DNA of 64,000 bases. Origin: Pristiophorus japonicus. Its lineage: Eukaryota. Below the pieces are notes generated by a model. That model saw nothing but the letters and a program-made list of their open reading frames with translations. It searched no databases and was not told the DNA's origin. The position numbers and the translations under genes are program-made. The DNA is taken from assembly GCF_044704955.1 (NCBI RefSeq), contig NC_091979.1, forward strand, positions 317,936,001 through 318,000,000. Reading direction: 5' to 3'. Of the stretch, positions 3,700 to 18,199 are shown one piece after another; the stretch's first letter is position 1; the number at the start of each line of letters is the position of its first letter.

Positions 3700-6600
3700 A
3701 GCCCCCTTGGTCCTCCCCTTTTTCCCCAGGGAATTGCAACAGATAGACCGAAGGACTGACCCCGTCAATAATTGGGAATGGGGCCATCCACCTTGGTTCG
3801 AAGCAATGTTGTTGCTTCCCATAGTTTAGTAGCATTACGATATCTCCCACTTGCTGTTCAAAAGGTCGGAACTGCTTATCGAAGTGTTTCTATGCCTGGC
3901 TTCTTGACTTCCCTGTCTGTCTGGCTACATTTCAAGCCATTTTTGGTTGGCAGTTCCCTGTACTAAGGGTGTAACTGAAGGGGTTAACAGATGGGCTGGC
4001 ATTCGCATTAGTCGCCCAGTCATAGCTTGGTAGGGTGAAATACCCGTTGTGCTATGCGGGGTGGATCTAATAACTATCTGGCACATTGACAGCATGCTAG
4101 ACCATTTGGTGGGGTGATCTGCACCAAATTTGTTTAACATAATTTTCAGAATTCGATTTCCTCTTTCCACCATTCCAGATGATTGTGGACGGTGGGAGAT
4201 GTGAAGTTTATGCAACATACCCATTGTCCGTTGCAGCTCGGTAAAACTTTGTGCGGTATCAGCCTGAATTGGCACTCCCTGCCTGCAGCTCACCTCACCC
4301 AATAATAGGCGAGCTGCTGTCAATACTGTGTTTGTTTTACATGGAAAAGACTCCATCCATTTTGTAAACGTAGCAACTACAACCAGACAATACCACAACC
4401 CAGAAGGTCCTGTAGGCAAGGGCCTATAAAGTCAATTTGAAGGTGAGACCATGGCCCCTCGGGAGGAGGGGGACTACCCAACAGTGCTCGCTTCATGTGG
4501 CACTTGGGTTTTGCTGTAAACAGGGCAGGCAACATTCACTCTATGAGTGACGTCAGTTACACAATTATGATGCCATGCAAATTTGCGTAGTCTCTGAACA
4601 GTTGCATCGGCTGAATAGTGTCCTCCCACCGGGTGTCAGTGGAGGAGATCAAACATTTTGGGTGCCATGGATGGGGGAACACAGACAACTGGGAGATCAG
4701 ATGATAGCCACCGCAAGCAGGGCCCATACATTAACAGGAGGGCAGATTTCCCAGACTGATCTGGAGCCAATTGTGTGTCCACAGCCCATGGAGTGGGCTG
4801 AGACAACGGACATCCATCCCGATGCCATGCAATAACAACCGCATAGGGAAGATAACTGGCCTAGAGACCGGGAGATCGATATCCCCACCTTGAATACTCG
4901 GGACAGACCTTAAGGGAGGGGTAGGAGCTTGCCAGAGGTCACCGTTAACGGTGGCATCTGTAGCAGCATGATCTGCTTGTGAGTTGCTCCGGGTGTGTAA
5001 GTTCAAAGATGCTGAGTGAGACTTCTTCTTACCAACATAAACAGGGGCTGATCGTGTTCCGAGCATACAGCGATAAAGGTAACAAAGTGTTAATCGCATA
5101 GGCACTATCTGGCCAGGCATTAACAGGTATGTCATAAGTCATTTGGATTGCTGTCACCAGGGCTGCAACTTCAGCACATTGAGCAGAGTGGGGAATGCAT
5201 TTATACTTAATTTCTCGGTCAGGCATAACTAATTCAAATCCACTAGGGGTTTTCCATTTCTGTGATAGGATGATCCATCAATGTAAACATCCGTGGCATC
5301 ACCTATTGGAGTAAGAGAGATGGGATGACGGTCGAACTTCAGTGGTGAAAGTGGACATTCATGGCTTCTGCCCTCATAAAATACGAGCTGAGGTAGAGTT
5401 GTCTGCTTTGGCGTTAATTCCAAATCTCTCTGAGTTAATAGAAGTGTCCAATGACTGAGTTGAGCAGAGGAGACCAGCGTGCCCCCCGGTTTAAGTAGAA
5501 GATTCAAGGGAGTGTGGGGGCTATGAATGATCGGTTTATTTAAACTGATAATAAACAAGAATTGTTTGACTGCCCAAAAAGTGGCCAGCAGATGTCACTC
5601 ACACACAGTAAAATTCTTCTCCACGCCAGTCAAAATACGAGAGGCCTACACAATTGGCATAAGTTTACTCTGTACCTCTTGACACAAAATGGCACCAAGA
5701 CTCTGATCGGTGGATCCCATCTCCAGGTGGAAAGGCTGAACTCGGTCAGGCTAATCAGGCATGTGACTTGCATATCGGCAATTTTAAGGAGGGACACCGC
5801 TGTTGTATGTTCGATGATCCAGTCACAGGCCACAGTGTCCTCTTCTCCCTTTAATAGTTCATATAAGGGTTTGGCCAGCTCTGCAAATCTGGGAATGAAC
5901 GAGCGCTGATATCCCACCAGACCCAGAAAGGAGAGAAGTGCTGTTTTGGATACGGGCAATGGTACCTAAAGCATAGCAATCTTATCCTGGTCGGGACTGA
6001 GTCCCTTTGGCCCCACAATAACCCCTAAAAATATCACTTCAGGCAACAACAATTGTGCCTTTTTGGGATTAATGTTCAACCCAGCTTTCGGAAGAAGGTC
6101 TAATAACTCTTCCATGAAGAAAGACTGGATCGACTAGGCTTATATTCACTGGAATTTAGAAGAATGAGAGGAGATCTCATAGAAGCATATAAAAGTCTGA
6201 CGGGATTGGACAGGTTAGATACAGGAAGAATGTTCCCGATGTTGGGGAAGTCCAGAACCAGGGGTCACAGTCTAAGGATAAGGGGTAAGCCATCTAATAC
6301 CGAGATGAGGAGAAACTTTTTCACCCAGAGAATTGTGAACCTGTGGAATTCTCTACCACAGAAAGTTGTTGAGTCCAGTTCGTTGAATATATTCAAAAGG
6401 GAGTTAGATGTGTCCCTTACGACTAAAGGGATCAGGGGGTATGGAGAGAAGGCAGGAGTGGGGTACTGAAGTTACATGATCAGCCATGATCTTATTAAAC
6501 GGCGGTGCAGGCTCGAAGGGCCGAATGGCCTACTCCTGCACCTATTTTCGATGTTTCTATGTTTCAATATGAGTTTGTTTATCAGATGTTGCAAGCAAAA

Positions 6601-7601
6601 GGTCATCAACATACTGCAGCAGACAGTCAGGTCTCAAAAAAGGGTTTAAGTACCTGAGCCATCCGTTTGTGGAATATAGTCGGGGCGTTGTGAAAGCCTT
6701 GAGGCAAACATGTCCTTCATGTTCCTTTGATCTTCAAAGGTGAAAGCAAACTTGTTCTGATCCCTTCCCTTGACAGGGATACTCCAGAACCTGGTTGAAA
6801 TATCAAAGGTGGAGACGTAGCAGCGACCGGGGGGAATTTGGGACAGGAGAATGTGGTCTCCCGATCAACAGAGGCACAAGCTGGAGTAACCGAATTAAGC
6901 TTGCGATAATCAATTGTTAAACGGCAACTATCGTCTAGTTTCCTAACTGGCCAAGTTGGAGAATTAGTAGTAAAAGTGCCAGTGTGAATAACGACCCAAT
7001 AGTAGACCCAACATAAGGTTTCCTCTCAGCTGGAATGGCATACTGCTTAACAGGAGGGTGGGAGGGCCCAATAATCTTCTCCTCCCCTGACATTCTACCA
7101 CAATCGTGTCTGGATTTAGCAAAAACATCTGAAAATTTACACTCAGCAAATCAACCCCGGGGTCTTCAGTCCAGGGAAGGGTGAAGTTCTCGGGTTTTTT
7201 AATCGTATATACCAAATGGGCATCCGAACAGGCCTCGGTGGTCCCTCACTAAAGTGCCACCATAAACAATAGTCGAGAACAGCGTGGTGTGTACGTAATG
7301 TGTCACTCCCGAGAATTCCTTTCTGGTCATAAGTAGTCAGATAAACGGCAGAGCGAACATTAACGGAATCCCCCTTGATAGATAGAACAATAGGAATTAA
7401 CCCCTGATTAGCCACCCGCGTAGCAGCATTAAAACCAGAAAGATTCAGAGCAAGACCTGAATGGGCAGGGTCGTGTAAAATAGTCATGGAAGAGCCGGAG
7501 TCCATGAGCATGACATGGTGGCGGCCTTCATGATCAATAGTTGGTCTGAAGGGTCTCGCATCCTCCTGATACCAAATGGGAGAGGAGGAGGAGTTGGTCA
7601 C
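3700..7601 (-). pseudogene. pol: ERV pro-pol (PR-RT-tether-RNase H-IN), disrupted
   Basis: DSG in ORF 7143-7601; YVDD at 6602-6613; SFLGLVGYQRSFIPRFAELAKPLY (5630-5959); RNase H fragments in ORFs 5229-5558, 5029-5226 and 4731-5135; integrase core in ORF 3925-4419. Confidence 0.9.
6113..6566 (+). mobile_element. 5'-truncated CR1 inserted into the ERV RT domain
   Basis: RGDLIE...FFTQR..NLWNSLP C-terminus followed by a TTCTATGT-type tail. The ERV RT frame resumes on both sides. Confidence 0.95.
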
Positions 7602-7699
7602 TGGTGAGGTTGGTGACCGTCACAGTGTTTGGGAAGGGGTGGATAGTTCTGGCCATGTACCCCCACTACGGGAGGCAGCTGCCACAGTTTGCCCCCCAT

Positions 7700-9432
7700 T
7701 TGATTGTGTTGCATGGTCTCTACCATTGCCGACAAGCACTCCAGTTTCTGTAGCATCTGTCTTGAATCCAGTCTGCTATCGTCTTGACCTGGAGAATGGT
7801 AACGCGGCCCATAATTTGAGCGTCGACTACCTCGACATTCTCGAGAAATGTGACCGGTTTTTTTTACAGTGAAAGCAAGTCACATCGCGTCTGTCCCTCT
7901 CATTGGGAGAGCCCTGTGGTGGTTGGGGATCTGGGTTTAGGGGACCCTCCACCGCTGAAACCCGAGCTTGAGGTCGAAGGGACTTGCTCGGTCCAGGCTT
8001 GAATACAGACTCCCATCAAGTCCACCCACGGGGTCCGTTTATGAACTGCTATTCCCAGAGCATCTCTTATCCCAGGCAAAAAACCGTTCAGAAACTTCAG
8101 TTTGAATTTCTTAGCTTCATTTGCATCTGGATATCATTGGGCCTTTTCGTATTAGCCATATAACCGAGAACGAAAGGAAATAGGGCGCTCATCTGGTGAG
8201 CGCATCCCATCAGCTGGTTAAAGTCAATTGAATCCATACCCAGTCGGACGGACACTGCCTCCAACACATACCACCAATCTCTGTCTGAATCATACACATC
8301 CTGGGGGAGCACATCCCAAAGGTCCTCGGAGACACATCACAACAAAACCTGTTTTAAATCTGCCGTCTCTAATTCAGGATAGCTACGGCGGAACCTGCCC
8401 CAGTTACGGGTCAGGGTGATCGGATTCATCCCCAAGATGACGGGTCCCATCGATTCTACGAGTGCCTTTAATTCATCCGGTTTCAGACTTCTGCTAGTAG
8501 TGGTGACGCTTTCTCTCGGGGGTTGGTCATATGTCCCGGAGACCTCAGAATTAGTGTCAAACTCATCTTCATTATCTGCCTGGGCTGTTGTAATAGTGGT
8601 AGTGATCAGATTAACCTTCTTTGTCTCTGCCGGGGTGTTCCCTCCTGGATAAGGGGGAGGGGGCGTGAGGGTCGGGGGCTGTCCTGACAATAAGAATCTT
8701 TGTGGGATTATTTCTGTTTAGTCAGGCCTTCCGGGTTAACATTGGGGTCTCCCAGTTTAGAGCGAGTGATGGCTGCCACAACAGCTGATTGCTTTCCCAG
8801 TTTCCCCTGCAATTCTAGTATTTTTAATTCACACTGGGAGTGACCAATGCCCACCGGAGGGGGGCTTACAAGATACTCTCTGAGAACTCCTCTTGAGTTC
8901 CTCAGTTGTGAGGACAAGAGTTTAACCTTGGATTTTAAAGACTGGTTTTGCTCAAAGGCCTGCTGATGACGTTGTGAAGCCAGTCGGGCTTCCTCTCCTC
9001 ATGTCGAAGGAAAGAACAGACATTAGCATATCGATCCTGCCAGTCCTGTCATTTTTTTTCAAGTGAAGTATTTTGTTCTAAGCGCTCGAGTTCTTTCGAG
9101 CGGACGGCACACAAGTGGGCCATATTGGGCTGTATATGACTAGCTTCTTTAAGCTTAATCTTCTTCTCATTCACTTGGGATGCTATCCCATCCCAGTGCT
9201 TGGAGTAACTACACCCCTCCTCTTGGACCACTCTAATAACCTCTTTGGCCCTCTGGACCCCGAATTTCTCGGAGAGACTGCTCATGATTTTATGTCTACA
9301 ATGAGCATCCGTGATTTGTTTTTTGGTTTCCGTGACGAAGCACACCCCCATACGGGGTTTCCTACCCAGTCGTTCCACCTGATACCCTTTATGACATTTT
9401 AGAGCAAGTCTGTCTCCAACTCGTTTCTCCAC
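7700..9432 (-). pseudogene. gag: ERV gag, disrupted
   Basis: Coiled-coil-like N-terminal fragments (ORFs 9049-9432, 8708-8917), PPPPY at about 8649-8663, and a frameshifted zinc knuckle CFHCKK/GHISREC at about 7835-7880. Confidence 0.75.
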
Positions 9433-11930: not shown

Positions 11931-12713
11931 ACCCCATTCCCCAGTCTCCCTCTCCCCGAGCCCCCATTCCCCAGTCTCTCTCTCCCCGAGCCCCCATTCC
12001 CCAGTCTCTATCTCCCCGAGCCCCCATTCCCAAGTCTCCCAGTCCCCAATCCCCCATTCCCCAGTCTCCCTCTCCCAGAGCCCCCATTCCCCAGTCTCCC
12101 TCTCTCCCCGAGCCCCCATTCCCCAGTCTCTCTCTCCACGAGGCCCCATTCCCAAGTCTCCCTCTCCCCAAGCCCTCATTCCCCAGTCTCCCGCTCCCCG
12201 AGCCCCCATTCCCCAGTCTCTCTCTCCCCGAGGCCCCATTCCCAAGTCTCCCTCTCCCCAAGCCCTCATTCCCCAGTCTCTCTCTCCCCGAGCCCCCATT
12301 CCCAAGTCTCCCAGTCCCCAAGCCCCCATTCGCCAGTCTCCCGCTCCCTGAGCCCCCATTCCCCAGTCACCGTCTCCCTGAACCCCCATTCCCCAGTCTC
12401 CCTCTCCCCAAGCTCCCATTCCTCAGTCTCCCACTCTCCCCAAGCCCCCATTCCCCAGTCTCCCTCGCCCGGAGCCCCCATTCCCAGTCTCCCTCTTCCC
12501 AAGCCCCCATTCCCCAGTCTCTCCCTCTCTCCCCGAGCCCCCATTCCCCAGTCTCCCTCTCCCCCACCCCCCATTCCCCAGTCTCCCTCTCCACGAGCCC
12601 CCATTCCCCAGTCTCCCTCTCCCTGAGCCCCCATTCCCCAGTCTCTCTCTCCCCAAGCCCCCATTCCCAGTCTCCCTCTCTCCCCCAGCCCCCATTCCCA
12701 GTCTCCCTCTCCT
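11931..12713. repeat. 30-bp minisatellite (CCCCCATTCCCCAGTCTCCCTCTCCCCGAG)n, ~26 copies
   Basis: Direct tandem periodicity. The same unit recurs at 16047-16530. Confidence 0.95.
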
Positions 12714-12721
12714 CCGGCCAC

Positions 12722-12788
12722 CATACATAGAATCATAGAATGGTTGCAGCACGGAAGACGACCATTTGGCCATCCAGCCCGTGCCGAA
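12722..12788 (-). mobile_element. CR1/HER1-type 3' terminus (stem-loop region plus ATTCTATG repeats)
   Basis: Minus strand reads CGGCACGGGCTGGATGGCCAAATGGTCGTCTTCCGTGCTGCAACCATTCTATGATTCTATG. Confidence 0.85.
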
Positions 12789-13037
12789 TTAGACATATCT
12801 CATTTACATTAAACACCAAAAGACCCAACTGGAGATTTCTATCCAATCACCAAAAAGAAAATATCCCCAAACCCACTCAATGATAGATACGTTACCGATT
12901 ACTATTAACACTGGCAGCAGCCAGTGACAATCAAACGAAATGAAGATGCAGAATCGTGGATTGCTTCTGAATGAACCCTCCTTGCGACACAGCAAGTCCA
13001 GATTCTAGTCCCAGTGAACTTCACTTCGGGACCAGCC

Positions 13038-14105: not shown

Positions 14106-14201
14106 TGTTACTTCCCTCGACAGGCTGGAATGAGCGGTTTGCAGGCAATCCTTTTCCGAGAGACCGTCCGTGAGCTGCGCCCAATTCAGACCGTGTGATT
14201 C

Positions 14202-15360
14202 CTGTGCCCTGTGCCGATACTGTGTCTCTGGGACTGTCTCTCTGTGCCCTGTGCTGATACTGTGTCTCTGGGACTGTCTCTCTGTGCCCAGTGCTGATAC
14301 TGTGTCTCTGGGACTGTCTCTCTGTGCCCAGTGCTGATACTGTGTCTCTGGGACTGTCTCTCTGTGCCCAGTGCTGATACTGTGTCTCTGGGACTGTCTC
14401 TCTGTGCCCAGTGCTGATACTGTGTCCCTGGGACTGTCTCTCTGTGCCCTGTGCTGATACTGTGTCTCTGGGACTGTCTCTCTGTGCCCTGTGCTGATAC
14501 TGTGTCCCTGGGACTGTCTCTCTGTGCCCAGTGCTGATACTGTGTCCCTGGGACTGTCTCTCTGTGCCCTGTGCTGATACTGTGTCTCTGGGACTGTCTC
14601 TCTGTGCCCTGTGCTGATACTGTGTCCCTGGGACTGTTTCTCTGTGCCCTGTGCCGATACTGTGTCTCTGGGACTGTCTCTCTGTGCCCAGTGCTGATAC
14701 TGTGTCTCTGGGACTGTCTCTGTGCCCTGTGCTGATACTGTGTCTCTGGGACTGTCTCTGTGCCCTGTGCTGATACTGTGTCTCTGAGACTGTCTCTCGG
14801 TGCCCTGTGCTGATACTGTGTCTCTGGGACTGTCTCTCTGTGCCCAGTGCTGATACTGTGTCCCTGGGACTGTCTCTCTGTGCCCTGTGCTGATACTGTG
14901 TCTCTGGGACTGTCTCTCTGTGCCCTGTGCTGATACTGTGTCTCTGGGACTGTCTCTCTGTGCCCTGTGCTGATACTGTGTCTCTGGGACTGTCTCTCTG
15001 TGCCCTGTGCTGATACTGTGTCTCTGGGACTGTCTCTCTGTGCCCTATGCTGATACTGTGTCTCCGGGACTGTCTTGGTGCCCTGTGCTGATACTGTGTC
15101 TCTGGGACTGTCTCTGTGCCCTGTGCTGATACTGTGTCTCTGGGACTGTCTCTCTGTGCCCTGTGCTGATACTGTGTCTCTGGGACTGTCTCGGTGCCCT
15201 GTGCTGATACTGTGTCTCTGGGACTGTCTCTGTGCCCTGTGCTGATACTGTGTCTCTGGGACTGTCTCTCTGTGCCCTGTGCTGATACTGTGTCTCTGGG
15301 ACTGTCTCGGTGCCCTGTGCTGATACTCTGTCTCTGGGACTGTCTCTGTGCCCTGTGCTG
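14202..15360. repeat. 40-bp (38-bp variant) VNTR between MHC-I promoter and ATG, ~29 copies
   Basis: Unit CTGTGCCCTGTGCTGATACTGTGTCTCTGGGACTGTCTCT, very homogeneous. Confidence 0.97.
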
Positions 15361-15545
15361 TCTGTTCTTGCGCTTTGCCCAGTGCAGAGTGTTTTACACT
15401 CAGACTCCTCCGGTTCGATTGGTTCGAGGGTATATTTGTCTCCAATTACAATAAAAACAGGCTGTGAGTCAATAGGCTCCGGGTAGAAAAGACACGGGGA
15501 GAGTTTGTGTTGGTGCCGAAATAAACTTTCCAAACATTGAACTAT

Positions 15546-15587
15546 CCAATCAGACAAATACTGCGAGCTGCATCATCAGTTGCCGGG
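15546..15587 (-). promoter_or_regulatory. MHC X1-X2-Y promoter module (RFX, CREB/ATF, NF-Y)
   Basis: Minus strand: X1 CCCGGCAACTGATG (15587-15574), overlapping X2-like TGATGCA, a 20-nt spacer, then Y box CTGATTGG (15553-15546). Oriented toward the MHC-I ORF. Nearby: AP-1 TGAGTCA (15465-15471), a second CCAAT (~15418-15422), TATA-like AAATATA (~15431-15437). Confidence 0.8.
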
Positions 15588-15714
15588 TAGGTTAAAGATA
15601 ATCCCCGCCTCTCCCGGTCCCGAGTTCTCCCACCACCCTCCAAACCCAACTTCCCGACTCCCAACCCCCCGAAAGCTCTGCCCACCCCCGGCAGCTCGAT
15701 CTCCTGAGGGGTTC

Positions 15715-15890
15715 AAGGGATCTGCTGCGAGGGGGCTGAAGGGATCTGCTGGGAGGGGGCTGAATGGATCTGTTCGGAGGGGGCTGAAGGGATCTGCTGG
15801 GAGGGGGCTGAAGGGATCGGCTGGGAGGGGGCTGAAGGGATCTGCAGGGAGGGGACTGAAAGAATCTGCTGGGAGGGGGCTGAAGGGAGT
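15715..15890. repeat. 24-bp minisatellite (GGGAGGGGGCTGAAGGGATCTGCT)n, ~7 copies
   Basis: Direct tandem periodicity. Confidence 0.9.
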
Positions 15891-16046
15891 TGCTGTGGTG
15901 TGTGAGAGAAGGCCAGGGCTGGAGAGGCCCAGTGACCTTGTCTGGAGCCCAGGGATCAGTCCAGCTCTTCCAGGCCCCCACAGAATAAATTACACTCAAC
16001 CTGGCCTCTTCTACCTCCCGCCTGGCCTCACCATGATCCCCCCTGA

Positions 16047-16530
16047 CCCATTCCCCAGTCTCTCTCTCCCGAGCCCCCATTCCCCCTCTCCCCGAGCCCG
16101 CATTCCCCAGTCTCCATCTCCCCGAGGCCCCATTCCCCAGTCTTCCTCTCCCCGAGCCCCCATTCCCCAATCTCTTTCTCCCTGAACCCCCATTCCCCAG
16201 TCTCCCTCTCCCCGAGCTCCCATTCCCCAGTCTCCCTCTCCCTGAGCCCCCATTCCCCAGTTTCCCTCTCCCCAAGCCTTCATTCCCCAGTCTCCCTCTC
16301 CCCGAGCCCCCATTCCCCAGTTTCCCTCTCCCCAAGCCCCCATTTCCCAGTCTCCCTCTCCCCGAGCCCCCATTCCCCAGTCTCCCTCTCCCCGAGCTCC
16401 CATTCCCCAGTCTCCCTCTCCCCAAGCCTCCATTCCCCATTCTCACTCTCCCCAAGCCCCCATTCCCCAGTCTCCCTCTCCCCGAGCCCCCATTCCCCAG
16501 TCTCCCATTCCCCGAGCCCTCTTTCCCCAG
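16047..16530. repeat. 30-bp minisatellite, second array (~16 copies)
   Basis: Same unit and orientation as 11931-12713. Confidence 0.95.
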
Positions 16531-16532
16531 TG

Positions 16533-16895: not shown

Positions 16896-18199
16896 GATCA
16901 TACTAATGGATGATCGTGGATTTCTGCTGGCACTCATGAGCCAATTGTTCATTTGTTGTTGCCTCCGGGACCATTACGGGATTCCAATGGGTTTCCCCCG
17001 AACTGAGGGATGCCAGGCAGTGAGGCTGCAGGGAGGTGTTCCGGGCCCATGTGCACTGACCTGCTCATCTGTTCTGCTATTCTGACTTTACCAGCATTGC
17101 TATGTTGATTATATATGAGCTAAAAATGTAAGTTAGATACACATAAGATGGGCTTTGATTATTTTGTTCTCTTACAGCAACACACTGAATGATTGCTTGA
17201 AAGCAAAACTTGGCCAGCTTCAATGTCACTTCACGTGGGGCCCACAGAGAGACAGCATTGACTTGGACGACATGAAGTATAGATTACAAGATTTAATACA
17301 GGCTCGTGTGAAATATCAGGCCAGGTCTGACAACCACCTCGCATTTGTAAACTGTCAGCAAGGCAATTCAAAGGGGCAATTCAAAACTTAAAGGAAGCTG
17401 AAAAGATTCTGAGGGAGAACCATGAACATTAATTTGAAAGAAGAAGCATCATCACCTATGGAAACTATGCCTGGGTATATTATCACATGGGCCAACTGAC
17501 AGAGGCCCAGTCCTACCTCGACAAGCTGGAGATGATCTGTAAATAATTTACTGATGGCTCTCAGTATACAGCACTGATACCTGAAGTATACGGGGAGAAG
17601 GGTTGGTCACTGTTGAATTCTCCTTGTCAATACTATGAAGAGGCAAAGGAATGTTTTGAGAAGACTCTGGAGGAAGATCCTGATGACACTGAATGGAACG
17701 TTGGCTATGCGACTGTTTTGTTCCGTCTGGAAGGGTTTTCTGGTACCCCAGAGAGTGGTGACTGCAGCCAATCAGTGAAGCAGTTGTGACGTGTGCTGGA
17801 ACTTGATCCAGATGACTCTGTAGCCATGTTGGCTCTAAAACTACAAGAGTTCAATCAAAAGGTGGAAGAACACGAATTAGTTGAACAAGCATTGCAGAAG
17901 TCCCCTGATCTTCCATATGTAACTCGTTATGCAGCAAAATTTTACAGAAGAGAAGGAGATGTGGAAAAAGCTGTGGAGCTGTTGAAGAAAGCATTAAAAA
18001 TTACTCCAAACTCTACCTTCATACACCACCAAATAGGTCAGTGTTGCAGAAAAAAAATATTTCAACTGATCAAATATCCAGGCAGCAAAGCCCCTCGCAA
18101 TCCTGCTTTTCAACAGAAAGCTGAGTTGATCAATCAATGCAAGTACTATTTTGAAAAGGCATTTGAGCAGAAGCCATCATTTATTTTTGCACAATTGCA

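Follow-up and report, generated by a model that had tools for sequence, protein, structure and literature searches.

How does an MHC class I gene that contains no introns come to carry the X1-X2-Y module of a class I promoter upstream of its reading frame? The question is raised by a stretch of 64,000 nucleotides from Pristiophorus japonicus (G000:C3:317936001-318000000), which was analyzed at its full length and is referred to here as the window. The original prediction placed an intronless class I gene beside the module, and this was borne out by an ORF of 355 aa at 14105-13038. It also held that a simple retrocopy should lack such a promoter, a point that we accept; the module is native class I promoter sequence of the RFX/CREB/NF-Y type. 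The features of the insert and of its surroundings are given in Table 1.

Table 1. Layout of the class I insert and its insertion site (window positions)
Feature	Position	Strand	Basis
Insert 5' end, putative upstream exon	15851..16034	-	80-82% identity, same orientation, to a block 5' of 5 native class I loci
24-bp tandem repeat, 7.8 units	15708..15895	-	apparent expansion of the upstream-block end
110-nt segment, contains kB-like site 15606-15597	15597..15707	-	matches within the family only
Junction, native-promoter homology begins	15591..15596	-	natives have ISRE, S box and acceptor-like ...TTCAG immediately 5'
X1 box and overlapping X2-like TGATG	15574..15590	-	native class I alignment; label presumed from consensus
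Y box CTGATTGG	15546..15553	-	spacing equal in 3/5 aligned native promoters
Remaining native proximal promoter and 5' UTR start, with AP-1 at 15465-15471	15361..15545	-	native class I homology
40-bp VNTR within class I 5' UTR, 29 units	14202..15360	-	tandem-repeat detection
Native-type 5' UTR	14106..14201	-	native loci match at 73-77% identity
Intact intronless class I ORF, 355 aa	13038..14105	-	colinear with 8-exon parent
3' UTR, joined directly to stop-codon exon by splicing	12791..13037	-	parent comparison
CR1-type LINE 3' tail, terminal ATTCTATG repeats = insert 3' end	12726..12790	-	no poly(A)
30-bp minisatellite, insertion-site left arm	11932..12724	.	tandem repeat and empty paralogues
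30-bp minisatellite, insertion-site right arm	16047..16531	.	tandem repeat and empty paralogues
Broken IFIT coding exon, head-to-head with class I copy	17180..18197	+	IFIT similarity

All of the principal motifs that had been claimed (X1-X2, a 20-nt spacer, Y and AP-1) were found on the minus strand. The X1-X2 motif CCCGGCAACTGATG (15587-15574) is separated by the spacer (15573-15554) from the Y box (15553-15546). The X-Y pair has one match in the window, compared to one in 100 shuffles, for a pattern that was chosen post hoc. No S box was found at the canonical position of the module on the minus strand, in agreement with the prediction, and it is missing in 10 of 10 copies of the family. The kB-like site GGGGATTATC (15606-15597) and the weak ISRE-like site AGTTTATTTC (15527-15518), both on the minus strand, are present as predicted, but neither is above chance. 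The kB-like site is not one of the 136 window sites that are within one mismatch of GGGRNWYYCC, and it falls outside the part inherited from a native promoter; the ISRE-like site has more than one mismatch to TTTCNNTTTC, and its sequence is common to the closest native promoters. The Y box is located 1.44 kb from the ORF because a 40-bp tandem repeat occupies the 5' UTR. The labels X1, X2, Y and S follow what we take to be the consensus of these boxes. Their order is also that given in PMC7922096.

According to PMC7922096 and PMC4374748, the class I SXY enhanceosome consists of RFX, CREB/ATF and NF-Y with NLRC5, and the Y box is 20-22 nt downstream of X (PMC4374748). We compared the window with the native class I promoters of the same genome. 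There are 17 genome matches to 15361-15700: ten family copies (nine on C3 and one on the small contig C3585), six native class I loci, and one 40-bp match. The native loci, located on C19 and C11, are intron-bearing, and have 75-84% identity to this region. In the alignment, five of the six have the order ISRE TTTCNNTTTC, S (CCAACCT), X1, X2, Y, while in the sixth (L059, G000:C19:57.15 Mb) a 25-nt deletion removes the S box; the Y box is degenerate in both C11 loci. L059 is a second naturally S-less class I promoter. Homology to native class I promoters, a check of which had been proposed, was found: the X1/X2 box is homologous, the Y box lies within the 20-22 nt distance from X, the X1-Y core (54 nt) is 94% identical, and the AP-1 site is present in six of six native promoters, being disrupted in three of the ten family copies. 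This homology sets in between S and X1 without any transition, either at an acceptor-like AG or no more than 5 nt from it, at a junction common to all ten copies. The ISRE and the S box, which are directly 5' of the break in five of the six natives, are missing in all ten copies, and the upstream ISRE/enhancer A is missing from the window module. In terms of sequence, the module is the X1-X2-Y half of a native MHC class I promoter, of the predicted RFX/CREB/NF-Y type. Set against the enhanceosome outlined above, the window has the X1-X2-Y order and the 20-nt X-Y spacer, and the native shark promoters have the full ISRE-S-X1-X2-Y, whereas the window module is without S and ISRE.

The closest parent of the intronless gene was found at C19:54.657-54.676 Mb. 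It has eight exons, all of its introns are GT-AG, and its 355-aa protein, identical to P0005, is 74% identical to the window ORF product (also 355 aa) without a single indel. All seven introns, one of them 3' of the stop codon, are lost in the copy. PSMB- and TAP-like exons are located 130-270 kb from the parent on C19, which resembles the elasmobranch class Ia region, where PSMB/TAP genes are beside class I genes (PMC10751288, sections cited); the copies are on C3. Judged by this comparison, the window gene is a processed retrocopy of the class I gene beside the TAP-/PSMB-like exons. The TAP/PSMB linkage that characterizes classical class Ia genes was not found for the copies, and by linkage the copy family is not a class Ia locus. 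In the alpha-3 tree, the parent groups with the copy and Squalus AAN77874; the alpha-1/alpha-2 tree gave the copy no resolved placement. The alpha-3 tree also contains two deep groups of shark class I, with the window gene, its parent and Squalus AAN77874 apart from the nurse shark 6LUP group.

The best PDB match of the protein encoded by the copy is 6LUP (E 5e-94), and a database protein from Pristiophorus japonicus is 99% identical to the ORF product; the best matches from other species are at most 72% identical, in a protein search that carries no gene structure. Eight of nine peptide-anchor positions are kept (Y7, Y59, R84, T143, K146, W147, Y159 and Y171, in what we take to be the standard numbering), position 123 being L, and N86 and all four cysteines are kept as well. 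The copy shares the fold match and the anchors with elasmobranch classical class I (nurse shark 6LUP, Squalus AAN77874 and P0005), but the copies are intronless, located outside the MHC, nine in number and near-monomorphic, with L at position 123.

The 3' end of the insert is informative with respect to the carrier. The insert stops at 12726 in ATTCTATG repeats without a poly(A) tail, and the homology of the copy to the parent ends exactly at the CR1 tail, with no parental 3' flank beyond. The 60-nt tail is also present in the 3' UTR of the parent; the parental ATTAAA, 42 nt beyond the tail, is absent from the copy, and no poly(A) signal was found close to the copy's 3' end. There are eight distinct tail matches in the loci examined: four follow the end of a LINE ORF2, and the other four are the window, the parent, a second class I insert and one repeat end. 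The second insert (L029/L133) is a 5'-truncated cDNA that has the same tail end, but a different 5' end and flank. It sits inside another repeat, which is dispersed over many contigs and of which L029/L133 is the least deleted member. The 3' end of the copy equals the 3' end of a CR1-type LINE, which is also present in the template, and two independent inserts end there. Because two independent inserts have the same 3' end, we infer that a CR1 LINE enzyme used the tail within the 3' UTR as its priming site when it copied class I RNA. Such common 3' ends suggest a concrete route for tail-specific CR1 LINEs to copy host mRNAs. Tail-specific LINE recognition and the shark HE1/HER1 pair have been described (PMC3747384); there, as presumably here, a LINE that recognizes the tail copies an RNA with this tail at its end, and the copy terminates in the tail repeats, although the shark class I passenger is a protein-coding mRNA with the tail in its 3' UTR. 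CR1 is described as rarely copying mRNA in the relevant sections of PMC5470649 and PMC3136929.

Other class I cDNAs are present in this genome. Copies of the 5'-truncated second insert, from alpha-3 to the 3' UTR, are dispersed over many contigs (L012-L017, L019-L023, L025, L029, L030 and more) and have shared flanks; those examined are all fragments, many of them with stops. Further separate processed class I pseudogenes are L039 (C13:26.08 Mb), L040 (C6:62.07 Mb), L042 (C2:319.83 Mb) and L043 (C17:3.90 Mb).

The insertion site is foreign to class I genes. The insert interrupts a 30-bp minisatellite of an IFIT array, and this minisatellite is uninterrupted at 14 of 14 paralogous sites examined. 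ATGGT is found at both ends of the insert; a target-site duplication was not seen at the empty sites. The original prediction had suggested that a native locus lost its introns by way of cDNA; such a gene would then have been moved as DNA. The native promoter sequence and the native upstream block are indeed kept in the copy, as expected under this scenario; however, the match to the parent goes no further than the CR1 tail and parental 3' flank is absent, the flanks are IFIT-array minisatellite on another contig, empty in 14/14 paralogues, and the intron-bearing parent persists on C19. We reject this scenario as very improbable. Even less credible, and likewise rejected, is the idea that the insertion site supplied the X-Y promoter of a different gene: class I promoters match the module, which runs without interruption into the class I 5' UTR and is the class I promoter itself, and the empty sites are without a module. 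The preferred reading, retroposition by a CR1 enzyme into the IFIT array, includes a subsequent spread. There are nine coding copies in the array on C3, eight of them intact and one frameshifted by a 20-nt deletion; in this one genome, they are 97-100% identical and were duplicated together with their flanks. The 40-bp VNTR has about 21-139 units among the nine copies, with no ATG within, and a short array of the same repeat is present in one native class I gene. Insertion into the minisatellite was followed by amplification and VNTR expansion. At the empty sites the minisatellite is followed by an ISRE cluster, and we considered the ISRE of the head-to-head IFIT gene as a substitute enhancer for the copy. 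This candidate was rejected: there is no such site in the window, and the cluster is missing behind all ten copies. The IFIT expansion is very large, with 91 IFIT-like matches in the genome, most of them at C3:316.3-319.5 Mb and others at C5:24.7-25.1 Mb, many with open frames of 476-515 aa.

The 5' end suggests how the promoter half may have been included in the RNA. The matches of the block at 16034-15851 in five native class I loci are located 2.7, 7.2, 8.4 and 14.7 kb upstream of the matched promoter at four of these loci. A GT donor is present in the block at five of five native loci, and the window has TT there. In three of the five native copies (L071-L075), the block opens with ATG (about MSRPGGSEEHGQKRP), and it is possibly an unannotated upstream first exon of class I paralogues. 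A search of the 54 kb upstream of the closest parent did not reveal the block, and the true donor locus would thus be an ancestral state. The native sequence 5' of the break has an acceptor score of 12-13, compared to 10-15 for the seven true acceptors of the parent, on a crude scale of our own devising. An AG-free run of 28-104 nt precedes the break at four of four loci tested. Equally good acceptor sites occur at 0.004 per nt, and the chance that a random break falls within 6 nt of such a site is approximately 0.02. The posterior for the break is 0.83 within 0-5 nt after the AG, 0.27 exactly there and 0.28 five nt later. Two points speak against splicing. The putative upstream exon would end in ATC and not in the usual MAG. 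The 110-nt segment 15597-15707, just before the junction, has no genome match outside the family, which leaves the donor putative; when it was compared with eight native intervals, nothing but a low-complexity, G-rich match scored better than shuffled sequence. Among the contigs of the public runs, where a blank proves nothing, no native transcript spliced into the X1 acceptor was seen.

These observations suggest the following sequence of events. A rare RNA of an ancestral class Ia gene would have been started upstream. Splicing of this RNA into the AG between S and X1, which we consider probable, would have made X1-X2-Y exonic and dropped the ISRE and the S box. On balance, the intron-free copy with its X1-X2-Y module likely arose when CR1 copied this long, probably spliced, upstream-started RNA. 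The original prediction had listed a transcript started upstream of the module among its explanations, and the upstream block, the comparison with the spliced parent and the acceptor-like break all argue for it. An alternative is that the same retroposition used a founding RNA that kept the whole upstream stretch including the ISRE and S, which was lost either through template switching during reverse transcription or through a subsequent deletion in the DNA. The position of the break is ambiguous by 5 nt, the end of the upstream exon is atypical, and a large deletion next door did remove the ISRE cluster that is present at the empty sites, all of which would fit such a loss. Conversely, the break is at an acceptor-like site with its AG-free run, at the low chance expectation given above, and the junction is common to all copies; we regard this alternative as rather improbable. 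Inheritance of a promoter through a 5'-extended transcript accounts for approximately 3% of expressed mammalian retrocopies, according to the cited section of PMC5470649. As in the Pgk2-type retrogenes outlined there, upstream-started RNA brings promoter sequence into the copy; the shark case differs in that an immune enhanceosome was cut in two, apparently by splicing, the putative carrier was CR1 instead of L1, and tandem amplification of the copy followed.

Whether the copy is used was addressed by substitution counts and by public reads. On the branch of the copy, 116 scorable codons contain 12 synonymous and 19 non-synonymous changes and no nonsense change (pN/pS 0.54), compared to 37 synonymous, 94 non-synonymous and 14 nonsense changes pooled over ten dead fragments (pN/pS 0.87; Fisher p=0.28). 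There are 0 stops on the branch versus 3.3 expected (p about 0.04); it should be noted that the dead fragments are interrelated and that some of the changes may predate retroposition. Changes affect 1 of 33 promoter box positions versus 20 of 150 positions downstream (p=0.13). These comparisons are at most suggestive of purifying constraint on the copy.

Near-exact contigs were found in three of three public runs, which belong to two studies and whose kind is not recorded. Run X1 has contigs of 560 nt (2 differences), 315 nt (0 differences) and 286 nt (1 difference), run X2 has contigs of 178 nt (0 differences) and 192 nt (1 difference), and run X3 has one contig of 303 nt (1 difference); no contig of run X3 fell on the promoter, an absence from which nothing follows. 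No RNA record was listed as containing the coding stretch. Among the variant letters listed for the runs, 39 of 40 equal the spliced parent, compared to at most 25 for any of the ten dispersed fragments. Because one contig of run X2 crosses four parental exon joints, we infer that run X2 and, probably, run X1 contain RNA; genomic carry-over may account for the near-exact contigs. One contig of run X1 (15401-15668) includes both the module and the junction, which indicates that some molecules extend 5' of X1, and for part of the RNA the start may still lie 5' of the module. Such RNA would contain four upstream ATGs, and only RNA starting below 15537 has none.

The X1-X2-Y module may now act as a weak promoter with a poor response to either NLRC5 or interferon. 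[quoted passage not shown] The proposal that the copy is open to immune-regulated expression is thereby weakened, the native ISRE and S box having been cut off and the kB- and ISRE-like sites being at chance level.

We tentatively consider, as a possibility somewhat short of even, that the copies are a working, transcribed family of peptide-binding class I retrogenes outside the shark MHC, with an S-less and ISRE-less promoter uncoupled from NLRC5 and interferon, tuned by the 21-139-unit repeat and co-amplified with IFIT, the CR1 tail having made class I mRNA a SINE-like passenger. A competing view is that the module and the ORF are passengers of the IFIT-array duplication, with read-through transcription only, or none. 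In accordance with this view, the tests of selection are not significant, the near-identical copies were duplicated with their flanks, 12 of the 17 variant codons among the copies are non-synonymous, one copy is frameshifted, and the 3' end is without a nearby poly(A) signal. However, 355 codons have remained without a stop or an indel despite approximately 10% change in the 3' UTR on the branch, whereas the ten dead fragments with their 14 stop-making changes are younger, and the near-exact contigs come from runs of two studies. Taken together, the passenger status is somewhat unlikely.

The family bears on the history of the elasmobranch MHC. In the sections consulted, a 2023 survey reported no class I genes outside the elasmobranch MHC, and its model of MHC origin is partly built on that (PMC10751288). 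The nine class I copies, eight of them intact, in an IFIT array on another contig contrast with this report. MHC-unlinked class I genes have been described in wallaby and newts, and a processed pseudogene, Ptal-06, in a bat (PMC2719672, PMC12863176 and PMC4753418, in the parts cited); they resemble the present case in that class I genes are located outside the MHC and that class I retrocopies exist. As far as these parts describe them, the unlinked wallaby genes mostly have full promoters and are not presented as retrocopies, and Ptal-06 is truncated and promoterless, whereas the shark copy is intact and promoter-bearing. In the accessible portions of the open-access literature, we came across no account of an MHC class I retrogene that is intact and carries a promoter. 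The native and copied promoters form a natural pair with and without S, which bears on whether the S-box requirement of NLRC5 is as old as jawed vertebrates.

Several minor observations concern other class I genes and the window itself. At G000:C11:148.36-148.57 Mb, intron-bearing class I genes have ISRE-S-X and a degenerate Y box, and are on a different contig from that of the TAP/PSMB-linked gene. They are a possible second exception to the rule that all class I genes are in the MHC, or the MHC may be split. At G000:C19:56.61-56.68 Mb, the nearest alpha-1 exon was found approximately 65 kb from exon 1, and the alpha-2 exon is like that of the class Ia gene, with alpha-3 of a different type, which suggests a mosaic gene. 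Positions 3900-9400 of the window contain pieces of an LTR-type retroelement, with integrase- and protease-like ORFs.
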